A stretch of DNA of 64,000 nt, taken from assembly GCA_034718535.1 (NCBI GenBank), contig JAYEMX010000064.1, forward strand, positions 4,328 through 68,327, given 5' to 3'. The translations under genes and the position numbers were made by a program. Origin of the DNA: Patescibacteria group bacterium (lineage in GTDB: Bacteria > Patescibacteriota > Microgenomatia > UBA1400 > CG1-02-47-37). How positions within the stretch are numbered: the stretch's first letter is position 1; every line of letters begins with the position of its first letter. Positions 4,148 through 28,659 of this stretch are shown one piece after another. Under the pieces are notes generated by a model that worked only from the letters and a program-made list of their open reading frames with translations, made no database searches and was not told where the DNA came from.

Positions 4148-4155
4148 AAAAAAAT

Positions 4156-4187
4156 CTCAAAACCAAGTAGTTTTAGCAGGTTTTGAG
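4156..4187 (-). terminator. 9-bp stem hairpin (ctcaaaacc/ggttttgag) followed on the minus strand by AUUUUUUU, ending 1 nt before the rpmJ AUG
   Basis: Read from sequence; intrinsic-terminator-like structure after infA. Confidence 0.45.
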
Positions 4188-4198
4188 GTTGTTAATTA

Positions 4199-4420
4199 TT
4201 ATTTTAATCTGTAAACGATTCGACCTTTGTCTTGATCGTAAGGAGATTGTTCGACTTTGACTTTATCTCCCGGAAGAACGCGAATTCTATACATTCGCAT
4301 TTTACCGCCCAAGTGACAAAAAATTGTTTTGTCTGAGTTGTTAATTTTTACTTTAAAAGTAGCGTTGGGAAGATTCTCAAGGACTACACCCTCTACTTCT
4401 ATAATGTCTTTCTGGCTCAT
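4199..4420 (-). CDS. infA: Translation initiation factor IF-1
   Basis: S1-like IF-1 sequence ([33 protein letters not shown]). Confidence 0.92.
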
Positions 4421-4463
4421 TATTGTTTTTATTATATCAGATAATTAATAATTTTTCTAACCC

Positions 4464-5201
4464 TCATGTCAATATGACAGGGTCAGACCCTGTCACTGCA
4501 ATGGTGTGTTCAAACATGCCGGCCATTTGACCGTCTTTAGTAACTATAGTCCAATTATCTTTTGGGTCGGTTTTGGTGTCGCTTGAACCTTTCATGTAGA
4601 TAACCTCAATGGCAATAGTCAGGCCCTTTTTTATAATAGGGGTGTTTTCGATTTTTCCCTCAAGAAAACAGGGAATCATGGGTGGTTCGTGAAGAGTCTT
4701 TCCAATACCGTGGCCGGTTAAATTTCTGGATACATTGTAGCCGTTAGATTCAATAGTGCCTTGAATCGCTTTTGAAATATGTCCAATATGATTATTTACT
4801 TTGGCTTGTTTAATAGCCAAATCCAGGGTTTTTTGGCCGATTTCCAGAAATTTTAATTTTTGAGGATAATCAGTCGGATTACCAACAATAAAACTAATAC
4901 ATGAATCTGTATTAAAACCCTTGTAAAGCATACCAATATCAATAGAAACAATATCGCCCAGTTTTAATTTTTTATCATCGGGAATACCGTGAACCAAGCC
5001 TTCATTTAAATTAATACAGGTGGCCCAAGAATAGCCGGGTACCATGGCGAAATTAGGTTTACCACCGGCTTTTTTAATTAAAGTTTGAGCCTTAGCTTCA
5101 ATTTGACTTAATTTAATTCCGGGTTTGGATATTTTTTTTAAGTCTTGTTTTATTTGGTGTAATTTAGCACCACCTTCGGCCATTAAATTGATTTTATTCA
5201 T
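4464..5201 (-). CDS. map: Methionine aminopeptidase type I
   Basis: MAP metal-binding motifs; the last 8 codons (VTGSDPVILT) are encoded by a REP-1 palindrome. Confidence 0.9.
   Translation of the reverse strand: MNKINLMAEGGAKLHQIKQDLKKISKPGIKLSQIEAKAQTLIKKAGGKPNFAMVPGYSWATCINLNEGLVHGIPDDKKLKLGDIVSIDIGMLYKGFNTDSCISFIVGNPTDYPQKLKFLEIGQKTLDLAIKQAKVNNHIGHISKAIQGTIESNGYNVSRNLTGHGIGKTLHEPPMIPCFLEGKIENTPIIKKGLTIAIEVIYMKGSSDTKTDPKDNWTIVTKDGQMAGMFEHTIAVTGSDPVILT
4475..4495. repeat. REP-1 palindrome tgacagggtcagaccctgtca, embedded in the map 3' coding end
   Basis: Perfect 10+1+10 palindrome identical to the copies flanking RAYT-1. Confidence 0.7.
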
Positions 5202-5764
5202 TGTGTTTGTTTTTTGATAAGATTGAGGGTGTGGTTAAGTTTTTTAAATAGTTTTTTGGTTTGTTTGTTATTTTTAATTAAAAAGTCAGCCATGGCAATT
5301 GGTCCGCCTTTGTGAAGGTTAACTAGTTCGGCGGTGTCACGTTGACTAGCTTGGGTTTTATTTAAAGAACGAACTGATCTTTTGGCTAAGCGCTGATAAC
5401 GAATTGATGGACGAGCATAAATACAAATAAGAGATAAGTGGTTAAATTTGCTTTTTAAATAAGTGTATTCTTCCCAAGAGTAAAGACCGTCTAAAAAAAC
5501 TATATTTGATTTTTTTAAAACTTTATCAATGCGAGGCTTAATTTTTATAGCCATGGCGGCCATACCAAGTTTTTTTCGAATATCTTCCCGATATTTTTTT
5601 TCATTAATTTCAGTTAAGGGAAGTCCCAGTTCTTTTAGGCCAATATCTGTTTGGTCGCCAAAACGTAAAACCGGATAGCCTTGTTTTTTAAAATGATCAC
5701 AACTGGTAGATTTACCGCTACCAGCCATGCCGACTATGGCAATGATAGTTTTTTTATCAGTCAT
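5198..5764 (-). CDS. P-loop NTPase, putative nucleotide or nucleoside kinase (extra kinase between adk and map)
   Basis: Walker A AIVGMAGSGKST; size and context resemble a small kinase; exact family not resolved. Confidence 0.4.
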   Translation of the reverse strand: MTDKKTIIAIVGMAGSGKSTSCDHFKKQGYPVLRFGDQTDIGLKELGLPLTEINEKKYREDIRKKLGMAAMAIKIKPRIDKVLKKSNIVFLDGLYSWEEYTYLKSKFNHLSLICIYARPSIRYQRLAKRSVRSLNKTQASQRDTAELVNLHKGGPIAMADFLIKNNKQTKKLFKKLNHTLNLIKKQTQ

Positions 5765-6332
5765 GATTAACTGTTTTTAATACATCTTGGTGAATGGCAG
5801 GTATAGATTGTTCACCGTTGATGGTTTTTAATAAATTGTTCTCTTTATAAAATTTTAGAACGTCAGCTTCTTGCTCGTGATAGATTTTTAAGCGAGAGGT
5901 AATTTTTTCTTTTGAGTCATGAAGAGAGCCATCCGGACTTTTTCGACCTCTTTTAAGTAAGCGTTTAATTGATTCCTCTTGTGAAATATCAAGATAAAAA
6001 ACAAAATTTACGGTTTTATTATATTTATTTAGTTTGTCAGCTAAAAATAAAGCTTGGGTGTGGTTTCTGGGAAAACCATCAATAATAAAACCAGACTGAA
6101 CATCCGGTTGTTTAAGTCTATGTTTCCATAAAACAAATATTTCCGAATCGGCCAAATAGTGGCCTGTTTTAAAAACTTCTCGACAAGAGTCACCCATTAT
6201 GCCTTGATCTTCGGCGGCATATTTTCTGACCAGGTCGCCTGAGCCCAAATAAGGAATATTAAGTTTTTTAGACAACATTTTGGCTTGAGTTGATTTGCCC
6301 GAGCCTTCCGGGCCGTAAAATATTATAAACAT
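5757..6332 (-). CDS. adk: Adenylate kinase
   Basis: FIIFYGPEGSGKSTQ P-loop, GFIIDGFPRN NMP-binding motif; position after secY. Confidence 0.88.
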   Translation of the reverse strand: MFIIFYGPEGSGKSTQAKMLSKKLNIPYLGSGDLVRKYAAEDQGIMGDSCREVFKTGHYLADSEIFVLWKHRLKQPDVQSGFIIDGFPRNHTQALFLADKLNKYNKTVNFVFYLDISQEESIKRLLKRGRKSPDGSLHDSKEKITSRLKIYHEQEADVLKFYKENNLLKTINGEQSIPAIHQDVLKTVNHD

Positions 6333-6338
6333 AGATAA

Positions 6339-6402
6339 TTAAGGTTCGGAATAAAAGGTTACGAACTCGAACTTTTTAAAGTTCGTAACCCTACAGAACC
6401 TT
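6339..6402. repeat. PAL element, composite: outer arms aaggttc/gaacctt enclose a perfect inner palindrome ggttacgaact...agttcgtaacc
   Basis: Fills the secY-adk spacer; ends 6 nt before the adk ATG. Confidence 0.6.
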
Positions 6403-6405
6403 TAT

Positions 6406-7680
6406 TTAGAGGAAACTGTCATAGTTTCGCATAATTAATTGAGATTCAAAGTTTTTACTAGTTTCAAGAATAACAGAAACAACGATTAAAATACCAGTAC
6501 CGCCAATAGTCATGGTGGTAATATTGGTTATATATCTGGCAATAGAAGGCAAAATAGCTATAAATCCTAAAAATAAAGCCCCGGCTAAAGTAATTCTGCT
6601 TAAAACATAAGAGAGATAGTCGGCAGTAGACTTGCCCGGTCTGATCCCGGGAATAAAGCCACCGTTTTTTTTGATGTCTTCGGAAATTTTATCCGGATTA
6701 AAAGTAACAGCAGTATAAAAATAAGTAAAAGCAATTACCAAGGTTAAATAAATAAGGTGGTAAGGAACTTTATTCGGATCAAAAAGGTTAACCAAACCAG
6801 TGGCAAAAGCAACTATTTTAGGGTTATTAACTTCGGTTAAAAATCTACCTAAAACAGATGGCATTAAAACCAAAGAAACGGCAAAAATAATCGGAATAAC
6901 TCCGGCTTGATTAACTCTTAAAGGTAGATGAGTTGATTGACCCGGTTGAGTACGACCACTAACTCTTCTGGCATAACGAACTTTAATTTGACGAGTAGCT
7001 TCATTAACATAAATAACTCCAGAGATAACCGCTAAGCTTAAAACAGTAAAAGTAATAATACTGGTAAAATTTAAGGTTTGACTAATTGAAGAGGTTTGAA
7101 GTAAAGAAACTGGAAGACGACCAACAATACCGGCAAAAATCAATAAGGAAATTCCATTACCAATGCCATATTCTGTAAGGAGTTCACCCAGCCACATTAA
7201 TAAAACCGTACCGGCCACCATAGTAATAACCGTACTAATGGCAAATATGGGGCTTGATAAAGATATTATTTGTTGGTTTTTTAGTAAGGCAACCATACCA
7301 ATACTTTGAATAGCGGCTAAAGGAATAGATAATATTCTAGTCCATTGATTAATTTTTTCTCGACCATACTCACCTTCTTTGCTGATTTCTTCAAGCTTGG
7401 GAAAGATCATGGTAAGAAGGTTAAAAACAATTGAGGCATTAATGTAAGGGCCTAATCCCAAAGCCATAACTGAAAAATTAGCTAAGGTGCCACCGGAAAA
7501 AATATCTAAAAGACCTAAAAGTTCACTGGAGCCAAAAAGTTGTTTTAAAGCGCTAAGATTAACACCGGGAACCGGAATGTGGGCAATAAAACGAAAAATA
7601 ATAAAAATAAAAAGAGTGATTAATATTTTTTTTCTTAAATCTTTAATTTTAAATATATTTAAAATCGGTTGAATATTCAT
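6406..7680 (-). CDS. secY: Preprotein translocase subunit SecY
   Basis: 10-TM SecY family similarity; spc-operon position. Confidence 0.92.
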
Positions 7681-7694
7681 TTAGATAATGAACC

Positions 7695-8369
7695 TTAGGT
7701 TATTTTTTGTGATGATTTTTTCTTTTTCTTTGATGCTCCCGAAGTGCCTTTTAAGGTGACACCTTCCGGCTTCGCCGTCCCGACTCGAGATTCTCTCGTG
7801 TCTCCTGTTAAGGTCTCACCTTTTCTTCGAGGGTGAACTTTTTTCTTTTTCTTTTTGGGAGCATGTTTTTCTTTTAAGGTCTCACCTTTTCTTCGAGGGT
7901 GAACTTTTTTCTTTTTGGGAGTGATAGATGTTATTTTGCCACCAGCTTTTTTAATTTTTTTAGCGGCTGATTTTGAAACAGGCAGAGCAACATTTAAAGC
8001 AACTTTAAGATCACCATCTCCCAAGATTTTTACTGGCAAACCTTTAACTTTGACCGGTAAAATTTTGTTTTTGATTAAAGTTTTAACAGAAACAGTTTGG
8101 TTTTTCTTAAAACCGGCTAAGTGTTTTAGGTTTATAATGATTGGCTTTACCTTAACCGATTTATTTTTAAGCTTTCCGCGTAACATGGGAATTCTTCTGA
8201 TTAAGCTTTTTCTCATTGGTGTGCCTTCAAAGTAAAGAGGGACTTTACCTCTGGCTTTTTGACCTTTGGCTCCACGACCGGAAGTATGACCACCTTTACC
8301 AGAACCATAACCACGACCGACTCTTTTTTTAGATTTGGTTTTTGTTTTTGTGAGGGTGTTTAATGACAT
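7695..8369 (-). CDS. rplO: 50S ribosomal protein L15 with a Lys-rich C-terminal extension of about 75 aa
   Basis: L15 core (GRGYGSGKGGHTSGRGAKGQKAR), then a tail containing duplicated KKKKVHPRRKGETL. Confidence 0.85.
   Translation of the reverse strand: MSLNTLTKTKTKSKKRVGRGYGSGKGGHTSGRGAKGQKARGKVPLYFEGTPMRKSLIRRIPMLRGKLKNKSVKVKPIIINLKHLAGFKKNQTVSVKTLIKNKILPVKVKGLPVKILGDGDLKVALNVALPVSKSAAKKIKKAGGKITSITPKKKKVHPRRKGETLKEKHAPKKKKKKVHPRRKGETLTGDTRESRVGTAKPEGVTLKGTSGASKKKKKSSQKIT
7819..7920. repeat. Direct tandem repeat of about 50 bp (2 copies) inside the rplO 3' extension
   Basis: aaggtctcaccttttcttcgagggtgaactttttt... appears twice in tandem. Confidence 0.7.
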
Positions 8370-8385
8370 ATTGTCTCCTTAATTA

Positions 8386-8874
8386 TCAGTTTTTTCTTGG
8401 CTGAAGTTGTTTTAATGCTTTAATGGTGCAGTAAACGTTTGAGGCTTTGTTTCTGGTTCCAAGGACTTTACTGGAAATATTTTTGACTCCGGCGGCTTCC
8501 ATAACCGATCGAACAGCTCCACCCGCAATAAGACCACTACCTTTTGGAGCCGGTTTGAGCATGACTTTAGCGGCACCAAATTTAACTAAAATATCGTGAG
8601 GAATGGTACCTTTTCTTATGGGTACTTTAATAAGATTTTTTTTAGCTCTTCTAATGCCTTTTTTGATTGAGGAGAGAACATCCGGAGCTTTACCCAAACC
8701 AACTCCAACTCTACCTTTTTTATCTCCAACAACCATTAGAACGGAAAAACCGATTTGATTACCACCTTTGGTTTTTTTGGAAACACGATTAACTTGAATA
8801 ACTTTTTCATCAAATTCTTTGTCTTTTCGATATCTGTTTTGATTTCTGGTATTTCTTGGCATTGGTTTGTTCAT
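8386..8874 (-). CDS. rpsE: 30S ribosomal protein S5
   Basis: S5 family similarity; directly abuts rplO with no L30 gene between. Confidence 0.92.
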
Positions 8875-8875
8875 A

Positions 8876-9226
8876 TTAAAATTTTAAACCGGCTTTTCTG
8901 GCGGCCTCCGCTAAAGCTTTAACACGACCATGATATTTATATGAGCCACGATCAAAAGCTACTTTATTAATTTTTTTGAGTTTGGCTTTTTTAGCAATAG
9001 TTTCACCAATATTTTTAGCTAACTCTACTTTAGTTTTTTTCTTTGGATCAAGATTTTTACTATTAGCATTAACTAAAGTTACTCCTTTGATATCGTCGAT
9101 AATTTGAGCAGAGGTGTATTTATTGGATCTAAAAACAGTTAACCTCGGTCTTTTTTGATTGGTAGTTAAACTAGCTCTGGTTCTGATTTTTCTTTTGGTT
9201 TTTAAATTTTTGTATCTATTAATCAT
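8876..9226 (-). CDS. rplR: 50S ribosomal protein L18
   Basis: L18 family similarity. Confidence 0.9.
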
Positions 9227-9228
9227 AT

Positions 9229-9777
9229 TTAAACTTCAGCGGCCTTAGCGGCTTTACCTGGTTTTAATTTAACAACCTCGTCTTGATATCTGATACCTTT
9301 GCCTTTATAGGGATCGGGTTTTTTAAATTCTCTGATTTTGGCTGCAACTTGACCAACCAACTGCTTATCCGGACCCGAAATTATAATGGTTTTATTGTCT
9401 TTAAGTTCTACTTTAATCGAATCCGGAGCTTGGTAAATAATCGGATGAGAAAAACCAAGGGATAATTTGATAGCCTGGTCTTTGGTTTCAACTCTAAAAC
9501 CAGTACCTTCGAGTTTAAGAGTTTTAGAATAACCTTTAATAACTCCTTCAACCATATTAAAAAGCAGGCTTCTGACTAAACCATGAAAGGCCTTAGTTTG
9601 ATTTGTTGGTTTTTTTACGGAAACTGAGGCAATATTGTCTTTAAGAGTTACTTTGATTCCCGTCGGAATATTTTGAGTTAAAGTAACACCTTTTGAAGAA
9701 ACCGTCAAAAGCTTGTCTTTAATATCTAAAGTAACTTCTTTTGGGATAATAACTGGTTGATTGCCGATTCTAGACAT
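9229..9777 (-). CDS. rplF: 50S ribosomal protein L6
   Basis: L6 family similarity (two alpha/beta repeats). Confidence 0.9.
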
Positions 9778-9778
9778 A

Positions 9779-10183
9779 TTAATTTACTTTTAAAAGAACC
9801 TCTCCTCCCAGATTATTTTTTATGGCTTGTTTAGCTTCCATAACACCCTTTGAAGTTGATAATATAACCATACCCCTACCTCTTATATAAACCGGAAGTT
9901 CTTTGATGTTAGCATAAATTCTGACTCCAGGTTTGGAAATTCTTTTTATTTGATTAATGGCTGATTTTTTGTGAATGTATTTTAGAGTAACTTTTAAGGT
10001 TTTTTGAGGAGCTTTATTTTCCAGTTTATAGTCTTTAATGTAACCTTTGTTTTTTAAAATTTTAAGAATACTTTCTTTTAGAATTGAATTGGGAATAGAA
10101 ACAGTTTTATGTTTAACTAATTTGGCATTTCTAATTCTGGTTAATAAGTCTGCAATTGGATCTGATAACATAATTTTTACCAA
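9779..10183 (-). CDS. rpsH: 30S ribosomal protein S8
   Basis: S8 family similarity ([13 protein letters not shown]). Confidence 0.92.
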
Positions 10184-10362
10184 CTGGCTTTGGTAACTCC
10201 TGGTAATTCGCCTTTTTGGGCTAATTTTCTAAAACATAATCTACAAAGTCCAAAGTGTCTGATATAAGCTCTTGGTCGACCACAGAGCTGACAACGATTT
10301 TTTTTCCTTGAAGAAAACTTGGGTTTTCTTTTTTGTTTAGCAAAGTATTTAACTTTTGACAT
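10177..10362 (-). CDS. rpsN: 30S ribosomal protein S14, type Z (zinc-binding)
   Basis: 61 aa with CxxC...CxxC. Confidence 0.9.
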
Positions 10363-10376
10363 ATGGTTGTTTTATA

Positions 10377-10922
10377 TTATTTTATTTTTTGAAAAGGCAT
10401 ACCGAAAAGCTCCAGTAGCCTTAAGGCAATCTTGTTATTATCGGTATTAGTAACAAAATTTATTTGCAGGCCTCGAATAGTGTCGATTGTATCATAATCG
10501 ACCTCTTGAAAGACAGTTTGATCATTTAATCCTATCGAATAGTTGCCTCGACCATCAAAAGAACTTTTGGAAACACCTTGAAAGTCTCTAACCCTTGGAA
10601 GAACAATTGATACAAATTTGTCAAAAAATTCATACATTTTTTTTCTTCTTAAAGTAACCTTAACTCCAATTGGGTCGTTTTTTCTAATTTTAAAGGCGGC
10701 TTCAGCCATTCTAGCTCTGGTAATGATGGCTTTTTGACCAGCGATAAGGCTAATATAGTCAGAGACTTTTTTGACTATACCTTTATCTCCGGCTCCTTCC
10801 TTTAAGCCAACATTAATAATAATTTTGGTAAGCCTTGGAACAGCCAAATCATTAGTTAAATTAAATTCTTTTTTTATGGTTTTGACTATTTGTTTTTGGT
10901 ATTTTTCTTTTAATCTATTCAT
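10377..10922 (-). CDS. rplE: 50S ribosomal protein L5
   Basis: L5 family similarity. Confidence 0.92.
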   Translation of the reverse strand: MNRLKEKYQKQIVKTIKKEFNLTNDLAVPRLTKIIINVGLKEGAGDKGIVKKVSDYISLIAGQKAIITRARMAEAAFKIRKNDPIGVKVTLRRKKMYEFFDKFVSIVLPRVRDFQGVSKSSFDGRGNYSIGLNDQTVFQEVDYDTIDTIRGLQINFVTNTDNNKIALRLLELFGMPFQKIK

Positions 10923-10928
10923 AATATT

Positions 10929-10976
10929 GTTAAGGTTCGGAACTAGAACTTCGGAAAGTTCACGAACCTTAGGTTA
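10929..10976. repeat. PAL element, canonical 48-mer gttaaggttcggaactagaacttcggaaagttcacgaaccttaggtta
   Basis: Identical to the copies at 12539 and 13606 (the 13606 copy lacks the 3' ggtta); ends 6 nt from the rplE ATG. Confidence 0.75.
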
Positions 10977-10982
10977 TATTTT

Positions 10983-11291
10983 TTATGATATATTTTGATG
11001 GCATTTTTTACAAATTCTAATTTTCTTTTTACCTTGGCCTTGATAACCCACTCTGGTAATTTTCTTACACTTTGGACAAATTAAAGCAACTTTTGAAACA
11101 TAAATCGGTTTAACCAGATCAATAATGCCACCTGGTTTTGATTCGCCTTGTGCCTTAAGGTGTTTTTTGTAGACATTGATCCCTGGAACTAAAACCATGT
11201 TTTTTTTGGGAAAGATTTTTTCAATTTTACCGGTTTTACCTTTATCTTTACCAAGAGTAACTTTGATGGTGTCGTTTACTTTTAATTTCAT
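10983..11291 (-). CDS. rplX: 50S ribosomal protein L24
   Basis: KOW-domain L24 family. Confidence 0.9.
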
Positions 11292-11662
11292 AATACCTCC
11301 GGTGCCTGAGAAGCAATTTTATTATAGCCAAGTTCTTTAATTTCTCTGGCTATCGGTCCAAAAATTCTAGTACCTTTTGGTTTTTTGTTTTCAATGTTTT
11401 CTAAAATAATAGCGGCATTATCGTCAAAACGAATATAGGAACCATCTTTTCTCGCAGTTTCTTTTTTAGTTCTAACAATGACTGCTTTAACTACTTCTCC
11501 GGACTTTATTTGAGCATGGGGTTGGGATTGAATAACAGAAGCAGTAACAATATCTCCCAAATGACCAAAACGTTTTTTTGAACCACCATGGACTAAGATA
11601 ACCCGTAGTTTTTTACCTCCGGAATTATCAGCAACTTTTAAGGTTGATCTTAATTGAATCAT
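11288..11662 (-). CDS. rplN: 50S ribosomal protein L14; start set at the internal Met MIQL
   Basis: L14 family similarity. Confidence 0.92.
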
Positions 11663-11880: not shown

Positions 11881-11890
11881 AAAATAATGT

Positions 11891-18291: not shown

Positions 18292-20448
18292 TTATGCCTC
18301 TTTTTCAGATGTTAATGGATTTTGCTTTTTTATAATAGCTTGAGTAATATTTGCTGGAACTTCTTCATAATGAGATGGTTCCATGTAAAAACTGGCTCTA
18401 CCTTGAGTCATTGACCTTAAAATAGTGACATATTGAGTTAGTTCGGCCAAAGGAACAAGGGCGGTAATAATAGTGATTTTGCCTCTGACAGCCGTACCTT
18501 GAACTTGAGCTCTTTTAGCAGATAAATCCCCAATAATCTCTCCCATAAATTCTTCCGGTGTAGAAACCTCGACTTTCATGACCGGCTCTAACAAGATTGG
18601 GTCTGCTAATTTAACAGCTGCTTGAACCGCCATTGAACCGGCGATTTTAAAAGCAATTTCAGAGGAGTCGACATCGTGATAAGAACCGTCATAAACAATA
18701 ACTTTAACATCAACTAAAGGATAATTGGCTATGCAGCCGTTTTCTAAAGCTTCTTTGACGCCTTTGCCAACGGCTGGAATAAATTCTTTAGGAATACGAC
18801 CACCAACTACTTCTGAAACAAATTCAAAACCTTCACCGGGTTTTTTGGGTTCTATTTTCAATAGACAATGTCCATATTGACCACGACCGCCAGATTGCTT
18901 GATATATTTACCTTCGGCTTGGGCTTGCTTTTTGATAGTTTCTTTATAGGCAACTTGAGGTTGACCGGTATTGGCTTCGACACTAAACTCTCTTTTCATA
19001 CGATCGACTAGAATTTCCAAATGAAGTTCACCCATGCCGGAAATAATAGTTTGACCGGTTTCCGAATTACTTTTGATAGTAAAGGTTGGATCTTCTTCTG
19101 AAAGCCTTTTTAAGGCATAACCCATTTTTTCCTGATCGGCTTTGGTTTTTGGTTCAATAGATAGTGAAATGACGGGATCGGTAAAAGTAATTCCTTCAAG
19201 AATAATCGGATTATCAGCATCACAAAGAGTATCTCCGGTAGTGGTTTTTTTAAGCCCAACTACAGCAACGATTTCACCGGCAGAAGCTTGATCTATTTCT
19301 TCTCTGGTATTGGCGTGCATTAAAAGAAGTCGACCAACACGTTCTTTTTCTTGTTTAGTAGAGTTGGTAACATAACTACCTGACTTGAGAATTCCCGAAT
19401 AAACACGAATATAGGTAAGGCGGCCAACGTGAGGATCGGTTTGAACTTTGAAAGCTAAGGCGGAAAATGGAGCATCTTTTGTGTTAGACCTAATTTCTTC
19501 TTTATCTGTTTTTGGATTAGTACCCTTAATATCTTTAACATCAACTGGGCTTGGAAGGTAATTAACAACAGCATCTAGTAAAGGTTGAACTCCTTTATTT
19601 CTTAGTGAAGAACCGGCAAAAACCGGAACCACTTTATAGGCTAAAGTGGCTTTTCTTAAGACTTTTTTAAGTTCATTTACGGTTGGTTCTTTTCCTTCAA
19701 GAAATTTTTCCAATAGTTTATCATCGTGTTCACTAATTTGTTCGATAAGAAGGTTTCGATACTTTTTTACTTCATCTTTCATATCTTCCGGAATATTAGT
19801 TTCTTGATATTTAGCGCCGGTTTCGTCAGATTTCCAAATTAAAGTTTTTTGGTCAAGAAGAAGAACAACTCCTTTAAAAGAAGATTCAGCACCAATTGGG
19901 AGAGTCATAATAAGGGGATTAGCCCCAAGCCGTTCTTTAATGTCATTAACTGTGGCTAAAAAATTGGCTCCCAGTTTGTCCATTTTATTGACAAAACAAA
20001 GTCTGGGAACATTATATTTATTGGCTTGATGCCAAACAGTTTCAGATTGAGATTGAACTCCTTCTTCAGCATCTAAAACAGTAATTCCTCCATCTAAAAC
20101 TCGGAGGGATCTTTCGACTTCAGCGGTAAAATCAACGTGTCCGGGGGTATCAATGATATTAATTCTGTGCTCAACTTGATCAACGGCACCTTTTCTGGTT
20201 GGGGTCCAAAAAGTGGTGGTGGCGGCTGACATGATAGTGATACCTCTTTCTTTTTCCTGTTCCATCCAGTCCATTTGAGTGTCGCCATCATCAATATTCC
20301 CAATTTTATATGATTTACCGGTATAAAATAAAATACGTTCTGTGGTGGTGGTTTTTCCAGCATCAATATGGGCAATAATGCCAATATTCCTGATTTTATC
20401 AAGAGATATGTTTTTTTTATTGGTATTATTTGGTTGTTTATCTGCCAT
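18292..20448 (-). CDS. fusA: Elongation factor G; start at MADKQ
   Basis: [10 protein letters not shown]-domain and EF-G domains II-V. Confidence 0.93.
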
Positions 20449-20456: not shown

Positions 20457-20483
20457 AAAAAAATCGCTTCACAGAGAGCGATT
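20457..20483 (-). terminator. Hairpin (aatcgct/agcgatt, 7-bp stem) followed by a U7 tract, ending 8 nt before the fusA AUG; terminator or attenuator-like
   Basis: Read from sequence on the minus strand. Confidence 0.4.
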
Positions 20484-20512
20484 GCTTCGTGAAAATACTT
20501 TAGTATAAATTA

Positions 20513-20546
20513 ATAGAGGTATTATATGAAAAAAAAGATTATTTGT
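20513..20546 (-). promoter_or_regulatory. Candidate sigma-70-like promoter TAGACA-N17-TATAAT reading toward fusA
   Basis: Hexamers and spacing read on the minus strand; lies between REP-2 and the fusA leader hairpin. Confidence 0.3.
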
Positions 20547-20574
20547 CTAGAGGAAACCTGTAAAATCCAGGTGG

Positions 20575-20597
20575 CCTACAAGGAGAGTCCTTGTAGG
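20575..20597. repeat. REP-2 palindrome cctacaaggagagtccttgtagg, 10 nt 3' of the rpsG stop, with a partial duplicated arm (ttttgtaggttt)
   Basis: Same 23-mer as the REP-2 copy after the RAYT-2 stop (55548..55574) and related to the other RAYT-2 copies. Confidence 0.7.
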
Positions 20598-20607
20598 TTT
20601 TGTAGGT

Positions 20608-21087
20608 TTACCAGCGGAAGTGGGCAAAGGCTTTGTTGGATTCGGCAACTTTATGAGCTTGGGTTTTTCTGTCAACGGCACCACCTTGATTTTTTATGGC
20701 ATCTGTTAGTTCGGCGGCTAGTTTTTGATAAAAGTGATGATGTTTTGAGTTTGGTCTTTTTCTGGCGGCATCGATAATCCAACGAATGGCTAGTGACTCT
20801 CTTCTGTTTCCCCTAACAGGCACAGGAACTTGATAGGCAGCTCCACCAACTCTTCTGGATCTAACTTCCATAGTTGGTTTAGCATTGTTAATAGCTTGAC
20901 GTAAAGCAATAATTGGGTCTTCTTTTGTTTGTTTTTTGATAAGTTCCAAAGCTTGATAAACGTGTTTTTGAGCAATTGATTTTTTACCACTATACATAAT
21001 TTTATTAATTATTTTAGCTACCAACTTATTATTATAAAGCGGGTCGGGTTTAGTGATACGTTTGTTTACTTTTCCTGTTCTTGGCAT
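20608..21087 (-). CDS. rpsG: 30S ribosomal protein S7
   Basis: S7 family similarity. Confidence 0.92.
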   Translation of the reverse strand: MPRTGKVNKRITKPDPLYNNKLVAKIINKIMYSGKKSIAQKHVYQALELIKKQTKEDPIIALRQAINNAKPTMEVRSRRVGGAAYQVPVPVRGNRRESLAIRWIIDAARKRPNSKHHHFYQKLAAELTDAIKNQGGAVDRKTQAHKVAESNKAFAHFRW

Positions 21088-21092
21088 AATAA

Positions 21093-21599
21093 TTATTCTG
21101 CTTTCTTACTATCTGTAGGTTTATCATCTGTAGGTTTGTCATCTGCGGGTTTATTCTTTGTTCCCGTAGCTGCTCCGGCAGAAGTAGTAGCACCACTGGC
21201 TTTAGTGCCGTATTTTGATCTTGAAGTTTTTCGGCCTTCGACTCCAGAAGAATCATATTTTCCTCTAATAATATGATATTTTACCCCAGGTAAATCTTTA
21301 ACTCTCCCGCCTCTAATTAAAACAATAGAGTGTTCGGCTAAATCATGGCCTTCACCTGGAATATAAGCAGTAACTTCTTGCTTGTTACTTAACCTAACTC
21401 TGGCAACCTTACGAAGAGCAGAGTTTGGTTTTTTTGGAGTCATGGTTTTAACAACAGTGCAAACACCTCTTTTTTGAGGATTGGTGGTAGAAATTACCCT
21501 TCTGGTTATTAAATTTAAGGATTTTCTTAATGCGGTGGCTTTGATTCTTTTAGGTTTAGATCTTCTTTTTTTTCTGACAAGTTGATTAATAGTCGGCAT
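21093..21599 (-). CDS. rpsL: 30S ribosomal protein S12 with an acidic/Lys-rich C-terminal tail containing a DDKPT repeat
   Basis: S12 core ([12 protein letters not shown]..., [10 protein letters not shown]) then a tail encoded by 3 x 15-bp tandem repeats at 21098..21145. Confidence 0.9.
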
Positions 21600-21600
21600 A

Positions 21601-24600
21601 TTATTTTTTGATGATAGCTCTTTTTTTACTGGTTGGTATTAAACGACCAATGATAACATTTTCTTTTAATCCCAGTAAGTGGTCTATTTTACCATGAGCA
21701 GCCGAACTGGTTAAAATACTTGAAGTGTGTTGAAAGGAGGCGGCAGATAACCAAGATTCTGTATGTAAAGATGACCTAGTAATTCCAAGGACTGTTTTTA
21801 CAGCGGTGGCTTTTTTACCTTTGTTTTTGGTAGCTAATTTATTGGCAGATTCAAAAATATTTTTTTCAACAAGTTCACCAGAAAGCAAATCCGTATCTCC
21901 AACTGTTTCTACTTGATATTTGTCACACATTTTTCTGACAATAATTTCCAAGTGTTTATCGTGAATTGGAATTCCTTGTGATTCATAAACAGCTTGAACT
22001 TCTTCAATCAGATAATTTTGAGTCTTAGCCATACCACGAGTTTTTAGTAATTCTTTAATATTTAAAGAGCCCGAGGCAAGTCTTTCACCAACTCCAATTA
22101 ATTGATCATTTTTAACTTTTAAAATTGAAGTTAAGGAAATATTATAGGTTTTGGCATCATTTTTATCGGGCGGAGTAATAGTAACTTGATGACCTTGAAC
22201 TGTTTCTTCAATACTAACTTTTCCGGCAATAGTGGCTAAAGGAGAAGACATTTTAGGATTTCTGGCTTCAAAAAGCTCTTCAACTCGAGGTAGTCCTTGA
22301 GTAACATCGGCAGTAATAATACCACCGGTATGTTTAACTCTCATGGTTAGCTGAGTACCAGGTTCGCCGATTGATTGAGCAGCAATAACACCAACCGGAG
22401 ATCCAATGGTAATTTTCTTTTTGGTAGAAAAATCCCAACCATAACAAGAAGCACAAAGTCCGTGTTTAGCTTCACAGGTTAATGGAGACCTAACTTTAAC
22501 TAGATTAATTTTTGACTTAAATATTTTTTGAGCAATTTCTTCTGTAATTATTTTATTCTTTTTAACAATTACTTTATCGGCAATTTTTATGGTTTTGGCG
22601 GCCAACCTACCAACAATTCTAATTCCAAAAGATTTATCACGATTCCCTTTTCTGACAATATCCAATCCTTGCTTGGTTTTACAATCGTCTAGTCGAATAA
22701 TCATATCGTGAGCAACATCCACTAAACGACGAGTTAAGTAGCCGGCATCTGCTGTTTTAATGGCCGAGTCGGTTAAGCCTTTTCTTGAACCTCTTGAAGA
22801 AGTAACATACTCAAAAACAGATAGGCCTTCTCTAAAATTTGATTTGGTTGGAAGTTCGACAATTTTTCCCAAAGGATCAACTACCAACCCACGCATGGCG
22901 GCCAACTGTTTAACTTGATCTTTAGAAGCACGAGTTCCACCTGATTGAATAATTATTTTGACTGAATTTGATTCGTCAAAACTATTCCAAGTTTTATCGG
23001 CAATTATACTAGTAACCTCCATCCAAAGCTCGATACTTAGTCTTCTTTTTTCTTCTCTGGTAATTAAACCATTTTTATAGTTTTCTTCGATGAGAAGAGC
23101 TTTTGCATTTGATTTTTTAATGATGGTTGATTTTTCTTTGATTATTTTACAGTCGGAAACAGCCACTGATAATCCAGACAAAGTAACTCCTTCAAACCCA
23201 AGATCTTTAAGATCGTCTATTAGCTGAGCAGTTTCTTTTTTAGAACAAATAGTAATAGCTTTTTTAACTAAGTTTTTAATGTCTGAAGATTTAATGGTTT
23301 TATTAATAAACCTTAATGGTTCCGGTAAATTTTCATTTAGCATTAATCTGCCGACAGAAGTTTCGATAATTTTTTTGTTTAACCTAACCTTAATTAATTG
23401 TCTAGTTTTTATATCTTTTGATTGATGGGCAAAAATGGCTTCTTTTGACGAAGAAAAAATAGTTTCATCTGGTTTTATTCGAGAATCTATTGAGGTAATA
23501 TAGTAAATACCAAGAGCCATTTCTTTGTTTGGAAGAGTAATCGGTGAACCATCAGCCGGTTTAAGCAAATTATTGTCTGGCATCATTAATTCAATAGCTT
23601 CTTTTTGAGATTTTTTTGAAAGTGGAACATGAACAGCCATTTGATCTCCATCAAAGTCGGCATTATAACCAGCACAAACACAAGGATGAAGTTGGATAGC
23701 ACTACCTTCTACTAAAACAGGATAAAAAGCTTGAATACCGAGTTTGTGCAAAGTGGGGGCACGATTTAGTAAGATCGGATGATCTTTAATAATATCTTCT
23801 AAAATATCAAAAACTTCACGAGGTTTTCTTTCCAAAAAGTTCTTAGCGGATTTAACATTTGGGGCAAAATTACGATTAATAATTTCTCTTAAAACATAAG
23901 GTTTAAATATTTCTAGGGCCATTAATTTAGGTATACCGGCTTGATTTAGTTTTAGATGAGGACCAACTACGATAACACTTCTGCCAGAATAGTCGACTCT
24001 TTTACCAAGTAAATTTTGGCGGAAACGACCCTGCTTTCCTTTAAGCATGTCTGCTAAAGAACGAAGTTCTTTGGTTCCACGACGCCTAATGGCTTTGGCT
24101 TGGGAAGTATCTATTAAGGTGTCAACGGATTCTTGAAGCATTCTTTTTTCATTCCTTAAAATTATTTCCGGAGCACCAAGATTTATTAAGTGTTTTAAGC
24201 GATTGTTTCGATTGATAACTCTTCGATATAGATCATTGATATCACTTGAGGCAAAATGGCCGCTCGATAATTGGACCATTGGTCTTAAATCCGGAGGTAA
24301 GACCGGCAAAAGTGAGATGATCATCCAATGTGGCTCAATACTAACTTTTTTGAAACCTTCAATAATTCTTAGTATTTTACTAGCTTTAATTTGGCGTTGG
24401 CCGGTATATTTTTTGACTTCGTCACGATATTTAGTGGTTAATTCTTTAAGGTCAAGTTTTTTAATAACTTCTAAAACAGCCTCTGCACCCATACCAACCT
24501 TAAGAAAACCAGTAGCGTTATATTCGGTTAATTTTAAGTATTCATCTTCTGATAAAACCGAAAGTTTATAAGTTTTTTTAACCAAATCTTTAATAGCATC

Positions 24601-25281
24601 ATAAATATCTTTCAAAATATCTTTTTCCAAGGCAAAGCTTTCTTTTAAGGCAACAATTTGCCTTTTAGTTTTTAACAAGGCTTCGTTAACAGCCATTTCT
24701 ATTTGTTCTTTAGCTTTGATTTTCTTTTTAATGACTTTAATTGATTTGGTTCCTTTTATTTTAGTGTCTTCAATCTCTTTTTTTAGATTTTCTTTGAGAA
24801 TATTTACTTTATCGGTAAATTGTTTATCTTGGTCTTTATAAATACCTTTTTTGGCACTTTCATCAGACTCGATAACTAAATACTTGGCAAAATAAATAAC
24901 CCCAGATAGATTTCTTGGAGAAACTCCCAAGATTAAAGATAAGTGGGAGGGGGCGCCTTTGAAAAACCAAATGTGGGCAACCGGACTAGCAAGTTTGATA
25001 TGACCCATTCGTTCTCGACGAACTTTACTTCGAGTAACTTCCACGCCACATTTATCACAAATAATTCCCCGATAACGAATGCGTTTGTATTTTCCACAAT
25101 AACATTCCCAATCTTTGGTCGGACCAAAAATTTTCTCACAAAATAGACCATCTTTTTCCGGTTTTAAAGTTCTATAATTAATGGTTTCCGGTTTTAAAAC
25201 TTCTCCGTGAGACCAAGATTTAATTACTTCCGGAGAAGCAAGTTTTATTTGTAGGCTGGCAAAATTAGTTAATTTATTCAT
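21601..25281 (-). CDS. rpoC: DNA-directed RNA polymerase subunit beta-prime
   Basis: Zn-binding CxxC N-terminus, NADFDGD catalytic motif. Confidence 0.95.
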
Positions 25282-25287
25282 TGGTTT

Positions 25288-28200
25288 TTATTTTTTCTTT
25301 TTTGTTTTTTTAGTTTTCTTTTTAGGCTGTTCATTTTTATCTAATTTTTTCTTTGGTGGATTATCTTCTTTTGACTGATCAACAGTTCCACCGGGAATAA
25401 TGTTTAAACATAAACTGTTTAATTCTTTAATTAAAACTTTAAAGGATTCCGGAACTGTAGCTTCAGAAATATCCAAGCTTTTAACAATAGCTTCAAATGC
25501 TTTAGCTCTACCAACCACGTCGTCTGATTTTATGGTTAGCATTTCTTGAAGAGTGTAAGCAGCTCGATGTGCTTCTAGGGCCCAAACTTCCATTTCCCCT
25601 AAACGTTGACCTCCCATTTGGGCTTTACCGCCTAATGGTTGTTGAGTAACTAAAGAATATGGCCCAGTTGAACGAGCATGAATTTTATCTTCAACCATAT
25701 GAATCAGTTTTAAAATATAGGCAACCCCAACAGTAATTTTTTCGTCAAAAGGATGGCCAGTTCGACCATCAAAAAGTTTAATTTTTCCGTTTGTAGGAAG
25801 ATTTGCTTTTTTAAGCTCCTTTTGAGTAACTTCTTCTTTGATATGTTCAAAAACCGGGAGAGCTACTTTATAGCCTAATTTTTTGGCAGCCCAACCCAGT
25901 TGAGCTTCCAAAAGTTGGCCTAAATTCATACGAGCTAAAACCGACAATGGAGAAATAATAATATCAACCGGGGTCCCATCTTCAAAATAAGGCATATCTG
26001 CCACAGGAAGTATTTTTGAGATAACTCCTTTGTTTCCATGACGACCGGCTAATTTATCTCCAGATAAAATTTTTCTCATTTGAGCAACTTGAACTTTTAC
26101 TTTTTTTAAGACTCCCGGATTGAGTTCGTCGCCTTTTTCGCGATCAAAAATTTCAATATTAATGACAACCCCCGCTTCTCCGTGAGGAACTCTAAGGGAA
26201 GTGTCTCGAACTTCTCTGGCTTTTTCTCCAAAAATGGCTCTAAGTAATCTTTCTTCGGCAGTAAGTTCTGTTTCGCCTTTGGGGGCAATTTTCCCAACTA
26301 AAATTTCGTTTGGCTCTACTTGTGAACCAACAACAACAATTCCATCTTCTCCAAGATTAGCTAGTTCGAGCTCGCCGACATTGGGAATATCTCTAGTTAA
26401 TTCTTCTGCCCCCAGTTTAGTGTCCATTATTTTAGCTTCATATTGGTTTATTATTATTGAAGTTAAAATATCTTGTCTAACTAAACGTTCCGAAATAATA
26501 ATAGCATCTTCATAACCCAAACCTTCGTAGCTCATATAGGCAATAGTTAAATTTTGACCTAAAGCAAGTTCTCCATTATCACTAGCCGGACCATCAATAA
26601 TCAAATCTCCTGCTTTTATTTTATCTCCAGTGGAAACCATGGGTGTTTGAGAGTAGCAGGTAGATTGAGTAGTTCTTGAGAATTTAGAAATTTTATAATG
26701 AAGTTCGTTTTTAGAAATAGATATAAAATTTGGTAAAGATTCTTTTATTTTTTTAATATCTTTGATGGATGATTTGATAACAACTTCATTAGAATCAACA
26801 TAAGTTACTATTCCTGAGGTAAGTGACTTGACTACTCGATTCATGGCTTGAGCTACTATTTTTTCCATTCCAGTACCAATAATCGGAGAGTCTGGCTTAA
26901 TTAAGGGTACGGCTTGACATTGCATGTGAGTGCCCATTAGAGCTCGATTGGCTTCGTCATGAGCAATAAAAGGAATTAAAGAGGCTGAAGTACCAACCAC
27001 CTGGTGAGGAACAACATCAGCAAATTCAATTTGTTTGCTGTTAATTTCTATATACTCTGTTTGATAACGAGCCGGAATCCATTGATCTAAAATATAGCCT
27101 TTTTCATCTAAATTAATTTCTGCGTGAGTAATATAGTGATTTTCTTCTTCGTCTGAAGATAAGTAAACAATTTCATCGGTAACTTTAGCCACTGTTTTTG
27201 TACCTTTAGTTTCATGAATTACTTTTCTATAGGGTGCTTCTAAAAAGCCAAAAGGATTAACACGAGCATAAAGGGTAAGATAAGTGACTAAACCTATATT
27301 TGGTCCTTCCGGAGATCTAACCGGACATATACGACTATATTGACTGGCATTAATATCACGCATAGAAAAACTGGCTCTTTCTCGAGTAACTCCGCCAGGA
27401 CCCATAACCGAAAGCCTTCTAAGGTTATCGATTTCAGCCAAAGGGTTGGTTTGATCTAAAATAGTAGATAAACGATTTCTTCTAAAAAAGTCTGAAACAG
27501 CAGCAATAACCGGTCGAGGATTAACTAATAAACTTGGAGTAATTTCAATGTCTGCTTTTGAAAGACTCATTTTTTCTCTAATTGATCTTTCCAGTCGAAG
27601 TAAACCAAGCCTAAAAGAAGTGGTGGCAACTAATTCACCTACTCGTCTAACCCGACGGTTAGAAAGAGAATCAATATCGTCAACTTTACCTTGGCCATTT
27701 TGAAGTGCAATTAAGTATTTTATGGAGGCAATAATATCCTCTCTGGTAAGAACGTTAACATCGGCAGAAATATTTAACTCTAATCGACGATTTAGTTTAT
27801 AACGACCGACATCTCCCAGATCATAGCGACGAGGATCAAAAAACATTTTATGAAATAATTCTCTGGCATTTTCAATAACAGCCGGATCTCCGGGTCTCAT
27901 TTTTTGATAAATTTCGATTAAAGCCTCTTCATGTGTTTTAGTGGGGTCTTTTTCCAGGGTTGAGAAAATAAAAGGATGTTTTTGGTCAGTATCTACATCT
28001 TTAAAAAGATTGATAATTTCTTCATCTGTAGTTGGTTGAATGGCTCTAAGAAGAGTAGTAGCTGATATTTTGCGATGCTTATCTATTTTAACTGTAATAG
28101 TATTATATCTAGAAATATTTATTTCCAGCCATGATCCTCTTAAGGGTCTTAATTCTGCCTGATAGAGATTACGACCTGTAGAGGGATCTGTACTCCCGGA

Positions 28201-28620
28201 AAAAAATACGCCCGGTGAACGGACGAGTTGATTGACAACCGATCTTTCAATTCCATTGATAATAAAGGTGCCAATGTCGGTCATTTGAGGAATATCCCCT
28301 AAAAAAACCTCTTGTTTTGTGGTTTCTCCAGTTTGAAGATTGGTTAATTTAGCTTTAACTCTTATGGGTACATCGTAGGTTAAACCTTTTTCTTTAGCAA
28401 TATCCGAAGATTTTTTAGGATTTCCAACTGAATGTTTACCAAATTCTAGTTGCCAATTTTTACCGGTAAAGTCTTTAATCGGAGAAATATTTTTAATAGC
28501 ATTGGTAATGCCTTCAGACATGAACCATTGATAAGATTCTTTTTGAACCTTGAGAAAATTAAGCTCCGGAAGGTTTTTTGGATAAGGTTTCCAGTTGATT
28601 CTTTTAGATTTTTTTGACAT
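25288..28620 (-). CDS. rpoB: DNA-directed RNA polymerase subunit beta
   Basis: Beta-subunit conserved regions throughout; Lys-rich C-terminal tail. Confidence 0.95.
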   Translation of the reverse strand: MSKKSKRINWKPYPKNLPELNFLKVQKESYQWFMSEGITNAIKNISPIKDFTGKNWQLEFGKHSVGNPKKSSDIAKEKGLTYDVPIRVKAKLTNLQTGETTKQEVFLGDIPQMTDIGTFIINGIERSVVNQLVRSPGVFFSGSTDPSTGRNLYQAELRPLRGSWLEINISRYNTITVKIDKHRKISATTLLRAIQPTTDEEIINLFKDVDTDQKHPFIFSTLEKDPTKTHEEALIEIYQKMRPGDPAVIENARELFHKMFFDPRRYDLGDVGRYKLNRRLELNISADVNVLTREDIIASIKYLIALQNGQGKVDDIDSLSNRRVRRVGELVATTSFRLGLLRLERSIREKMSLSKADIEITPSLLVNPRPVIAAVSDFFRRNRLSTILDQTNPLAEIDNLRRLSVMGPGGVTRERASFSMRDINASQYSRICPVRSPEGPNIGLVTYLTLYARVNPFGFLEAPYRKVIHETKGTKTVAKVTDEIVYLSSDEEENHYITHAEINLDEKGYILDQWIPARYQTEYIEINSKQIEFADVVPHQVVGTSASLIPFIAHDEANRALMGTHMQCQAVPLIKPDSPIIGTGMEKIVAQAMNRVVKSLTSGIVTYVDSNEVVIKSSIKDIKKIKESLPNFISISKNELHYKISKFSRTTQSTCYSQTPMVSTGDKIKAGDLIIDGPASDNGELALGQNLTIAYMSYEGLGYEDAIIISERLVRQDILTSIIINQYEAKIMDTKLGAEELTRDIPNVGELELANLGEDGIVVVGSQVEPNEILVGKIAPKGETELTAEERLLRAIFGEKAREVRDTSLRVPHGEAGVVINIEIFDREKGDELNPGVLKKVKVQVAQMRKILSGDKLAGRHGNKGVISKILPVADMPYFEDGTPVDIIISPLSVLARMNLGQLLEAQLGWAAKKLGYKVALPVFEHIKEEVTQKELKKANLPTNGKIKLFDGRTGHPFDEKITVGVAYILKLIHMVEDKIHARSTGPYSLVTQQPLGGKAQMGGQRLGEMEVWALEAHRAAYTLQEMLTIKSDDVVGRAKAFEAIVKSLDISEATVPESFKVLIKELNSLCLNIIPGGTVDQSKEDNPPKKKLDKNEQPKKKTKKTKKKK

Positions 28621-28625
28621 GACTT

Positions 28626-28659
28626 TAAAAAACAGAAAAAACGGGTGACTAACCCGTTT
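28626..28659 (-). terminator. Intrinsic-terminator-like hairpin (aaacgggt-uaguc-acccguuu) plus UUUUUCUGUUUUUU, ending 5 nt before the rpoB AUG
   Basis: Read on the minus strand; no SD before rpoB. Confidence 0.45.

Follow-up and report, generated by a model that had tools for sequence, protein, structure and literature searches.

Hairpins with U-tracts upstream of rpmJ, fusA, rpoB and nusA in a Microgenomates genome: candidate transcription attenuators of core gene-expression operons

Patescibacteria (the Candidate Phyla Radiation, CPR) hold a large share of bacterial diversity; almost all of them are uncultivated, with tiny genomes and few recognisable regulators. We analysed 64,000 nucleotides (nt) of contig JAYEMX010000064.1 from a member of this group (the window, with positions counted from its first letter), and in particular the stem-loops followed by runs of U that stand shortly before rpmJ, fusA, rpoB and nusA. 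The window has a G+C content of 33-38% and carries on its minus strand the rpoB-rpoC-rpsL-rpsG / fusA-tuf / S10-spc-alpha gene cluster. Its ribosomal protein S7 is 91% and 86% identical to S7 of two Candidatus Beckwithbacteria-type metagenome-assembled genomes (MAGs; L001 and L002) and 56-62% identical to S7 of Shapirobacteria- and Woesebacteria-type genomes; a protein from a 'Patescibacteria group bacterium' MAG matches its NusA at 100% identity. The S7 identities place the organism in Patescibacteria/Microgenomates, as a Beckwithbacteria-like member. The identities of rpmJ, infA, fusA and rpoB were confirmed with NCBIfam models, and all genes at the infA-rpmJ, rpsG-fusA and mltG-rpoB junctions lie on the minus strand. 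The genes and elements concerned are the following.

4199..4420, minus strand: infA (IF-1), the cistron upstream of the rpmJ hairpin (TIGR00008, 94.8 bits)
4156..4187, minus strand: rpmJ hairpin in the infA-rpmJ spacer, CTCAAAACC / 14-nt loop / GGTTTTGAG, -10 to -11.5 kcal/mol
4148..4154, minus strand: U-tract of the rpmJ element (T7), after A4155 and abutting the rpmJ ATG at 4147
4034..4147, minus strand: rpmJ (L36), heading the rpmJ-rpsM-rpsK-rpsD-rpoA-rplQ block (TIGR01022; gene order)
20462..20483, minus strand: fusA hairpin in the rpsG-fusA spacer, AATCGCT / 8-nt loop / AGCGATT, weak on its own at -6.8 kcal/mol
18292..20448, minus strand: fusA (EF-G), start ATG at 20448 (TIGR00484, 1081 bits)
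28766..28783, minus strand: 5'-proximal hairpin of the rpoB leader, TAGCCTG / ttat / CAGGCTA (sequence reading and fold)
28639..28659, minus strand: rpoB hairpin in the mltG-rpoB spacer, AAACGGGT / 5-nt loop / ACCCGTTT, -8.2 kcal/mol
28627..28659, minus strand: the rpoB hairpin with its U-tract, TTTTCTGTTTTTT, tail T6-C-T-G-T6, followed by AAAGTC and the rpoB ATG at 28620
25288..28620, minus strand: rpoB; rpoC, rpsL and rpsG come next, separated by spacers of 1-6 nt
49672..49697, minus strand: nusA leader hairpin GAGATGG...CCATCTT (49697-49676, -7.8 kcal/mol) with its T-run (T6)

A sequence-only reading of this DNA had placed a hairpin and U-tract just before rpmJ, fusA and rpoB, and its coordinates and description of these elements were correct. 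The U-tracts end 0, 8 and 6 nt before the respective ATGs and the distance from hairpin to gene is 0-18 nt, which leaves no space for a promoter. The fourth element, before nusA (identified by the Pfam NusA_N and KH domains, with infB as the next gene in relatives), stands 45 nt before the ATG at 49630, and no promoter consensus match was noted in this gap. A stable stem-loop on the transcribed strand was present in all four cases, that of fusA being marginal, and the U-tract stood directly at the stem in each: A followed by T7 (rpmJ), T7 overlapping the stem (fusA), T6-C-T-G-T6 (rpoB) and T6 (nusA). The flanks are A-rich on the 5' side with the U-tract on the 3' side, a canonical terminator geometry found on the sense strand only. 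In the infA-rpmJ spacer the infA stop (4201-4199) is followed by 11 nt and then the hairpin; the whole 51-nt spacer folds at -11.5 kcal/mol with z = -4.84, and none of 200 shuffled sequences did as well. At fusA the T-run (20463-20457) is followed by the 8 nt ATTGCCCT and then the ATG. A longer fusA open reading frame (ORF) starting at GTG 20472 would place the hairpin in coding sequence; it was rejected because the extension is frame-broken in L002. A plus-strand ORF across the rpsG-fusA spacer (20526-20777) was treated as spurious.

We then asked how common such signals are in the window. A loose terminator scan was uninformative, with hundreds of matches, 395 of them on the T-rich antisense strand, and was replaced by strict criteria: a single hairpin with at most 1 mismatch, a free energy of -6.5 kcal/mol or lower, and at least 5 consecutive T within 2 nt. 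A scan limited to loops of 8 nt or less misses the rpmJ hairpin with its 14-nt loop. Under the strict criteria the sense strand gave 8 matches, compared with 4.05 +/- 2.5 in the Markov simulations that served as chance control. Half of these (4/8) fell within the few per cent of the window that is intergenic, and they were the elements before rpmJ, fusA and rpoB plus the one at 49697-49676 before nusA. No strict match was found at the two convergent gene ends of the window, and generic gene ends are likewise without such terminators. Intrinsic-terminator-like signals are rare in the window, and the intergenic ones all precede operons for the transcription and translation machinery.

The same strict hairpin plus T-run was looked for within 150 nt upstream of each gene of the cluster at 33 Microgenomates loci. 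It was found upstream of rpoB in 13/14 cases, rpmJ in 8/16, rplC in 7/10, rpsJ in 6/13, fusA in 3/14, tuf in 3/13, infA in 2/15 and rpsI in 1/10, and upstream of none of about 30 other cluster genes. In outgroup phyla it occurred at rpoB in 4/17 and at fusA in 1/53. These positions correspond to the starts of the classical units rpoBC, str/tuf, S10 and alpha. The rpsJ and rpsJ-rplC signals come from L004-L012, L017 and L026; the latter sits inside the classical S10 operon and is lacking in the window, where the rpsJ-rplC spacer measures just 6 nt.

Cross-lineage MAFFT alignments mis-registered the stems, and covariation was read instead from anchored hairpins and from RNAalifold within subgroups. 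The rpoB hairpin showed compensatory changes, from ACGGGT/ACCCGT in the Beckwithbacteria type to ACGGGC/GTCCGT in L003 and ACGGAC/GTCCGT in L004 and L005 (L003-L005 are Shapirobacteria-type). In the second hairpin of the Woesebacteria-type rpoB leaders (L006-L012, L026), one pair is AU in 3 sequences and GC in 3. The fusA hairpin is kept as AGTCGCTT/AAGCGAT in L001 and as AATCGC/GCGATT in L002, and all 6 nusA relatives carry a GGTGGG...CCCACC hairpin with T5-6 at the same position as the window element. Hairpin and start codon lie 15 to 86 nt apart in the rpoB orthologues, and 14 to 42 nt apart in the fusA orthologues. Judged from these comparisons, it is structure rather than sequence that is conserved. 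They also bear on the possibility that the hairpins arose by chance in AT-rich spacers. About four strict matches per strand are expected by chance in 64 kb, and the z-scores obtained by shuffle folding for the fusA, rpoB and nusA leaders are modest (-1.9 to -2.7); against this stand the concentration of half the strict matches in the small intergenic fraction and the conservation of position, with changing stems, across dozens of diverged genomes. The comparative data effectively refute chance, which we regard as extremely improbable.

A hairpin plus T-run directly before rpmJ was found in L081, L082, L084-L088, L096 and L098, with stems of at least three types that are unrelated in sequence (CTCAAAACC/GGTTTTGAG, AATCAGGGGC/GCTCCTTGATT and CAAGGAGAA/TTCTCCTTG). 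Among the 8 lineages in which the distance was measured, 7 had the hairpin 8-9 nt from the ATG and L098 had it 14 nt away; T7-ATG or T8ATT-ATG was kept at rpmJ in relatives. A conserved TGTATAAT lies between infA and the hairpin in three lineages (L087, L090, L098). In more distant lineages infA and rpmJ overlap (ATGA) or are separated by a short spacer with a Shine-Dalgarno (SD) sequence, and L092 and L095, where the two genes overlap, have a hairpin with T-run upstream of infA instead.

Putative promoters were found upstream of all four elements, for rpmJ upstream of infA.

20521..20549, minus strand: fusA promoter TAGACA-N17-TATAAT, matching 11 of 12 consensus positions, the best in an 8.7-kb sigma-70 consensus scan
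28794..28821, minus strand: rpoB promoter TTGACT-N16-TG-extended TAATAT, its -35 overlapping the mltG TGA stop
49726..49754, minus strand: nusA promoter TTGCCC-N17-TG-a-TAAACT (direct reading)
4431..4459, minus strand: infA promoter TAGAAA-N17-TG-extended TATAAT (consensus scan, 10/12 with TG)

As a match to the consensus, the sigma-70-like candidate that the sequence-only reading had proposed in front of the fusA hairpin was confirmed (TAGACA 20549-20544, TATAAT 20526-20521). Its hexamers, the hairpin and the T7 are kept in both Beckwithbacteria-type relatives, and the promoter spacer diverges. Upstream of rpoB, both L001 and L002 retain TTGACT and TAnnAT. A perfect TTGACA or TTGACT is present in L003-L008, L010-L012 and L026, and a -10-like hexamer can be read in most of them. 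In the window and these twelve relatives the rpoB promoter hexamers are conserved and the spacers drift, as at fusA. In all Microgenomates relatives examined, TTGACA or TTGACT upstream of rpoB is followed by a hairpin near the predicted transcription start site and then by one or two hairpins with U-tracts. For nusA, TGnTAAACT is conserved in 6/6 relatives (L161-L166), with TTGACC 17 nt upstream in L162, L165 and L166. The infA -10 ends 10 nt before the ATG at 4420, and the rpmJ hairpin lies about 270 nt downstream of this promoter. In the window and in 11/13 relatives (L081-L095), 10-11 nt separate the end of TGnTATAAT from the infA ATG, the other 2 having been read from aligned residue 8, with the start codon not located. 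Because the extended -10 ends so close to the ATG, its position implies that the infA mRNA of Microgenomates is near-leaderless, with a predicted 5' untranslated region of about 3-4 nt.

The order of promoter and hairpin is relevant to the possibility that these are ordinary leaky end-of-operon terminators of infA, rpsG and mltG in a compact genome, which do not regulate the genes behind them. The hairpins do lie downstream of these three genes, and concatenation of terminators and promoters at the same operon borders is known in Salmonella (PMC6735719). Yet for fusA, rpoB and nusA the promoter is upstream of the terminator and not downstream of it, and the generic gene ends of the window carry no such terminators. 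The fusA element also stays with fusA when the upstream neighbour changes: in L001 and L002, rpsG and fusA are separated by 0.8-1.9 kb, including an opposite-strand IS200/RAYT-like gene (RAYT, REP-associated tyrosine transposase; REP, repetitive extragenic palindrome), and the fusA leader is intact despite the different upstream DNA. On this comparison the elements follow the downstream gene and not the upstream neighbour, and we consider plain leaky terminators improbable.

The rpoB leaders of other lineages have further structure. In the Woesebacteria-type leaders an almost invariant hairpin, GGCGTAC-loop-GTACGCY, analogous to the 5'-proximal hairpin of the window, comes right after the -10 and is followed by the second, covarying hairpin with its U-tract. 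Given its invariance, the first hairpin may be recognised sequence-specifically by a protein or by RNA polymerase (RNAP). The Shapirobacteria-type leaders contain two tandem hairpin/U-tract units. Such 5'-proximal hairpins would also be compatible with a role in RNA stability or processing, in which the elements act as barriers to 3' exonucleases, as 5' stabilisers or as RNase sites that segment the ribosomal-protein transcript, with no effect on RNAP. Many other intergenic hairpins in the cluster, which have no U-tract, could serve roles of this kind. A stabiliser, however, needs no U-tract, and the U-tract is kept wherever the hairpins discussed here are kept; moreover, they are placed specifically at operon heads, downstream of promoters. 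A pure stability or processing function is, in our estimation, unlikely.

It had further been pointed out in the sequence-only reading that rpmJ, fusA and rpoB have no SD sequence. This is true of the three genes and is nothing special to them, as 57 of 64 genes in the window are SD-less. GGAG or GAGG at -18 to -4 was found in 7/64 genes, equal to the coding control (7%), and duplexes with the anti-SD of -6 kcal/mol or lower occurred in 14% of upstream regions versus 6% of controls. The 20 nt upstream of the 64 starts are 42% A. Runs of 5 or more T in the 25 nt before the start were confined to rpmJ, fusA and rpoB and absent from the other 61 genes. Lack of an SD is the rule among the genes of the window and the U-tracts are the exception. 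SD usage overall amounts to about 11-14% of window genes, with the GGAG/GAGG core indistinguishable from the coding background; strong GGAGG sites are kept by a few highly expressed genes (tuf, dnaK, rplO, rplQ, rplX).

These figures allowed us to weigh the earlier suggestion that the elements are U-rich standby sites for translation initiation, the unpaired U-tract next to a hairpin serving as an S1 or standby landing pad and termination being incidental or absent. It would fit the missing SD at the three genes and the situation at rpmJ, where U7 abuts the ATG and the hairpin keeps its distance in nearly all lineages despite differing stems. The leaders of the other SD-less genes are, however, A-rich and not U-rich, and T-runs of this length occur only behind hairpins. 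The distance from hairpin to start is constrained at rpmJ alone, with the wide ranges given above for rpoB and fusA and 45 nt at nusA. Nor is the predicted accessibility of the start codon raised, at 0.43 for rpmJ, 0.42 for fusA and 0.70 for rpoB compared with a genome mean of 0.59. We assign this explanation a low probability and see a small possibility of a secondary translational role for the U-tract at rpmJ. About 30 nt into rpmJ, at 4118-4112, an A7 (gttAAAAAAAga) is complementary to the U7 that precedes the ATG. In the folding model this pairing probably accounts for the below-average accessibility of the rpmJ start, and the complementarity could represent a translational pairing.

Taken as a whole, we consider it reasonably probable that the four elements are transcription attenuators of the intrinsic-terminator type, located in the leaders of rpoB(-rpoC-rpsL-rpsG), fusA(-tuf) and nusA(-infB) and in the infA-rpmJ spacer. 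What was observed is their anatomy, their rarity, their restriction to the sense strand, and their conservation together with the gene downstream. The position within leaders or between cistrons is drawn from three of the findings above: no promoter fits behind the hairpins, promoters are predicted in front of them, and the elements stay with the downstream gene. RNAP would initiate at the conserved sigma-70-type promoter, which stands immediately before the hairpin at rpoB, fusA and nusA and before infA in the case of rpmJ. After a short leader it would run into a hairpin of weak to moderate stability (-7 to -11.5 kcal/mol) and the 6-7 U behind it. There, some of the complexes would terminate and the remainder would read through into the essential genes. 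Termination must by this logic be partial or conditional, since no promoter fits between hairpin and essential gene. By analogy with known systems, the read-through fraction might be tuned by the level of NusA, NusG or RNAP, which would give homeostatic feedback on the synthesis of RNAP, NusA and EF-G; that attenuation is regulated rather than fixed is conjecture. The contact between U-tract and start codon appears to be mainly a consequence of genome compaction in the lineage and not a mechanistic requirement.

Partial termination or attenuation had been the first suggestion of the sequence-only reading, and it is upheld in so far as there is no room for a promoter, the downstream genes are essential and the elements are conserved with them. 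The proposed purpose, setting the stoichiometry within operons, fits infA-rpmJ, which is truly intercistronic. It does not fit fusA and rpoB, whose elements lie in leaders behind conserved promoters of their own and would gate the transcription unit as a whole.

Several points weigh against attenuation. All promoters are consensus predictions, and the transcription starts are predicted with them. The hairpins are weak, and that of fusA has a more stable competing fold in the window. Long loops such as the 14 nt of the rpmJ hairpin lower terminator efficiency in model bacteria. Termination alone leaves the near-constant U7-ATG spacing at rpmJ across lineages unexplained. No antiterminator was found by folding and RNAalifold for the rpmJ, rpoB or nusA elements, nor could a structure that binds a ligand or protein be made out. 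No Rfam leader family reached its gathering score in the window, among them the known autoregulatory leaders of ribosomal proteins (S4/alpha, S7/str, L4/S10, L20 and others). In a permissive Rfam search of the leaders the highest score was the 19.4 bits of L20_leader, whose gathering score is 58.7, with no 6S-like or rimP-leader match.

For fusA the competing fold provides a candidate antiterminator. A helix enclosing the 5' arm of the hairpin (20468..20493, minus strand; UUCACGA...UCUGUGAA) was obtained in the minimum-free-energy fold and in the RNAalifold consensus fold of the leader. The competing fold is present in 3/3 close sequences. These differ by a single change on one side of the helix, no pair is changed on both sides in a compensatory way, and L001 alone favours the terminator. 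As evidence for a riboswitch-like antiterminator at fusA, this folding model is suggestive only. Ribosome-coupled antitermination at the infA stop was also considered and is disfavoured: the distance from stop to hairpin is 11 nt in the window and ranges from 10 to 36 nt in relatives.

We compared the elements with known attenuators of the same genes. In E. coli, the rplL-rpoB attenuator has been linked to autogenous control of RNAP synthesis. It lies just upstream of rpoB and stops about 70% of transcripts (bioRxiv 10.1101/2021.11.05.467461). Like the rpoB element of the window, it is a partial terminator immediately upstream of rpoB that limits rpoBC, and it would be the closest functional analogue. 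Unlike rpoBC in the E. coli rplKAJL-rpoBC arrangement, rpoB in the window stands behind mltG, with a promoter of its own and a leader of about 165 nt; the two elements share no sequence similarity and are analogues, not homologues. The leader terminator of rimP-nusA-infB is reported to be the most widespread attenuator, has a GGG...CCC stem and was proposed to mediate autoregulation by NusA (Naville & Gautheret 2010, PMC2965389). The nusA element alone resembles it, as a terminator in a short leader before nusA-infB, with the GGTGGG...CCCACC stem and U-tract of the relatives behind a conserved promoter. The differences are that the hairpin directly precedes nusA with no rimP gene, that the window stem is degenerate (GATGG/CCATC) and that no Rfam or covariance-model match was obtained.

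In streptococci, an attenuator between rpsG and fusA with a possible antiterminator has been predicted (PMC2965389). The fusA element, compared with this attenuator and with the rpsL leader, resembles the former in its place between rpsG and fusA and in being a candidate premature terminator. It differs in having its own promoter in the Beckwithbacteria lineage, in that rpsG and fusA are often split by insertions, and in showing no sequence relation. The same survey of premature terminators found regulatory terminators to be weaker than those at gene ends (PMC2965389), and the hairpins of the window are likewise weak to moderate. In Salmonella, terminator-promoter overlaps between operons ('operon concatenation') occur within the rpoBC, S10, spc and alpha supercluster and affect the downstream operon (PMC6735719). 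Closely packed terminators and promoters mark the borders of these ancient operons in both cases; in Salmonella the terminator of the upstream operon overlaps the next promoter, whereas in the window the promoter precedes the terminator, as in a leader attenuator. Archaeal internal operon terminators (ioTTS), located in ribosomal-protein and RNAP operons, lower the expression of downstream RNAP subunit genes by partial termination and matter for growth (PMC10450193). They come closest to the rpmJ element, which stands upstream of an rpoA-containing block, but they are archaeal and consist of U-tracts without an obligatory hairpin. Most likely, the elements are attenuators of a known kind in a lineage where they had not been described before.

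Other hairpins of the window belong to repeat families.

20575..20597, minus strand: REP-like palindrome CCTACAAGG-N5-CCTTGTAGG, just after the rpsG stop and not part of the fusA attenuator
6405-6333, 10982-10923, 11939-11889, 12578-12531, 13656-13603, 17005-16941 and 18291-18250, minus strand: AAGGTTCGTGAACTTTCCGAAGTTCTAGTTCCGAACCTTAAC hairpin family, also in L001, L002, L081, L083 and L161

The REP-like palindrome has 6 copies in the window (447-469, 20575-20597, 54848-54870, 55049-55071, 55353-55375 and 55550-55572). Four of them lie at or inside an IS200-like Y1 transposase gene on the plus strand (54900-55547, RAYT-like, PF01797), and the two inside the ORF encode a conserved peptide, LQG[DES]SLKV, which the homologues from L001 and L002 share. 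In these two relatives the palindrome also flanks the RAYT-like genes between rpsG and fusA, and the window has a solo copy at this place. Palindrome and Y1 transposase look like a REP/RAYT system in a CPR genome.

The second family consists of near-identical intergenic hairpins in the ribosomal-protein cluster (consensus AAGGTTCGTGAACTTTCCGAAGTTCTAGTTCCGAACCTTAAC, -14 to -25 kcal/mol), which have no U-tract. Their 3' arm ends 4-15 nt before the SD-less starts of adk, rplE, rpsQ, rplP, rplV and rpsJ, and in close relatives the hairpin is found at other junctions, before rpsS, rplP, rpsJ, rpsK, rplM, secY and nusA. Because it is placed at different junctions in close relatives, it behaves as a mobile element of the REP type or of the miniature inverted-repeat transposable element (MITE) type, with a marked preference for sites just upstream of start codons. 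Translation coupling, RNA processing and stability are possible roles. The motif GAACCTTAA upstream of many SD-less genes was considered as an alternative ribosome-binding site or -10 and was rejected, as it is the 3' arm of this hairpin. A further exact palindrome, GACAGGGTCTGACCCTGTC, has 4 copies where none is expected (4476-4494, 37296-37314, 37814-37832 and 38029-38047). One copy lies at the 3' end of the gene map, a short way before the infA promoter, and occurs in L081 as well; the other three are around or inside a plus-strand ORF (37335-38030).

Some proteins of the window are unusual in their own right. The C-terminal domain of NusA (48449-49630) matches the family of the RNAP alpha C-terminal domain, PF03118. 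S12 (21093-21599) has 168 amino acids and extends past the 124-residue model. L15 (7695-8369) has 224 amino acids, and its gene contains an exact 21-nt direct repeat (7816-7836 and 7882-7902). There is no rpmD (L30) between rpsE and rplO.

Among the papers available to the search, none connects terminators or attenuators with CPR or Microgenomates. For transcription-machinery genes, leader attenuation is a classical mechanism, and the advance lies in scope and lineage, not in kind. Canonical sigma-70-type promoters and very low SD usage are documented in Microgenomates at the same time. A bolder extension, possible if doubtful, is that the four leader terminators form one coordinated termination-sensing circuit: factor-dependent terminators would gate rpoBC, the block from rpmJ to rpoA, NusA-IF2 and EF-G/EF-Tu, so that the cellular activity of NusA, NusG or RNAP would set its own production, coupled to the output of translation factors, and the rpmJ U-tract would serve in addition as an SD-independent ribosome entry site. 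If true, such a circuit would operate in a minimal genome with few transcription factors. The attenuators proposed here offer a concrete, testable picture of core gene-expression homeostasis in Patescibacteria.

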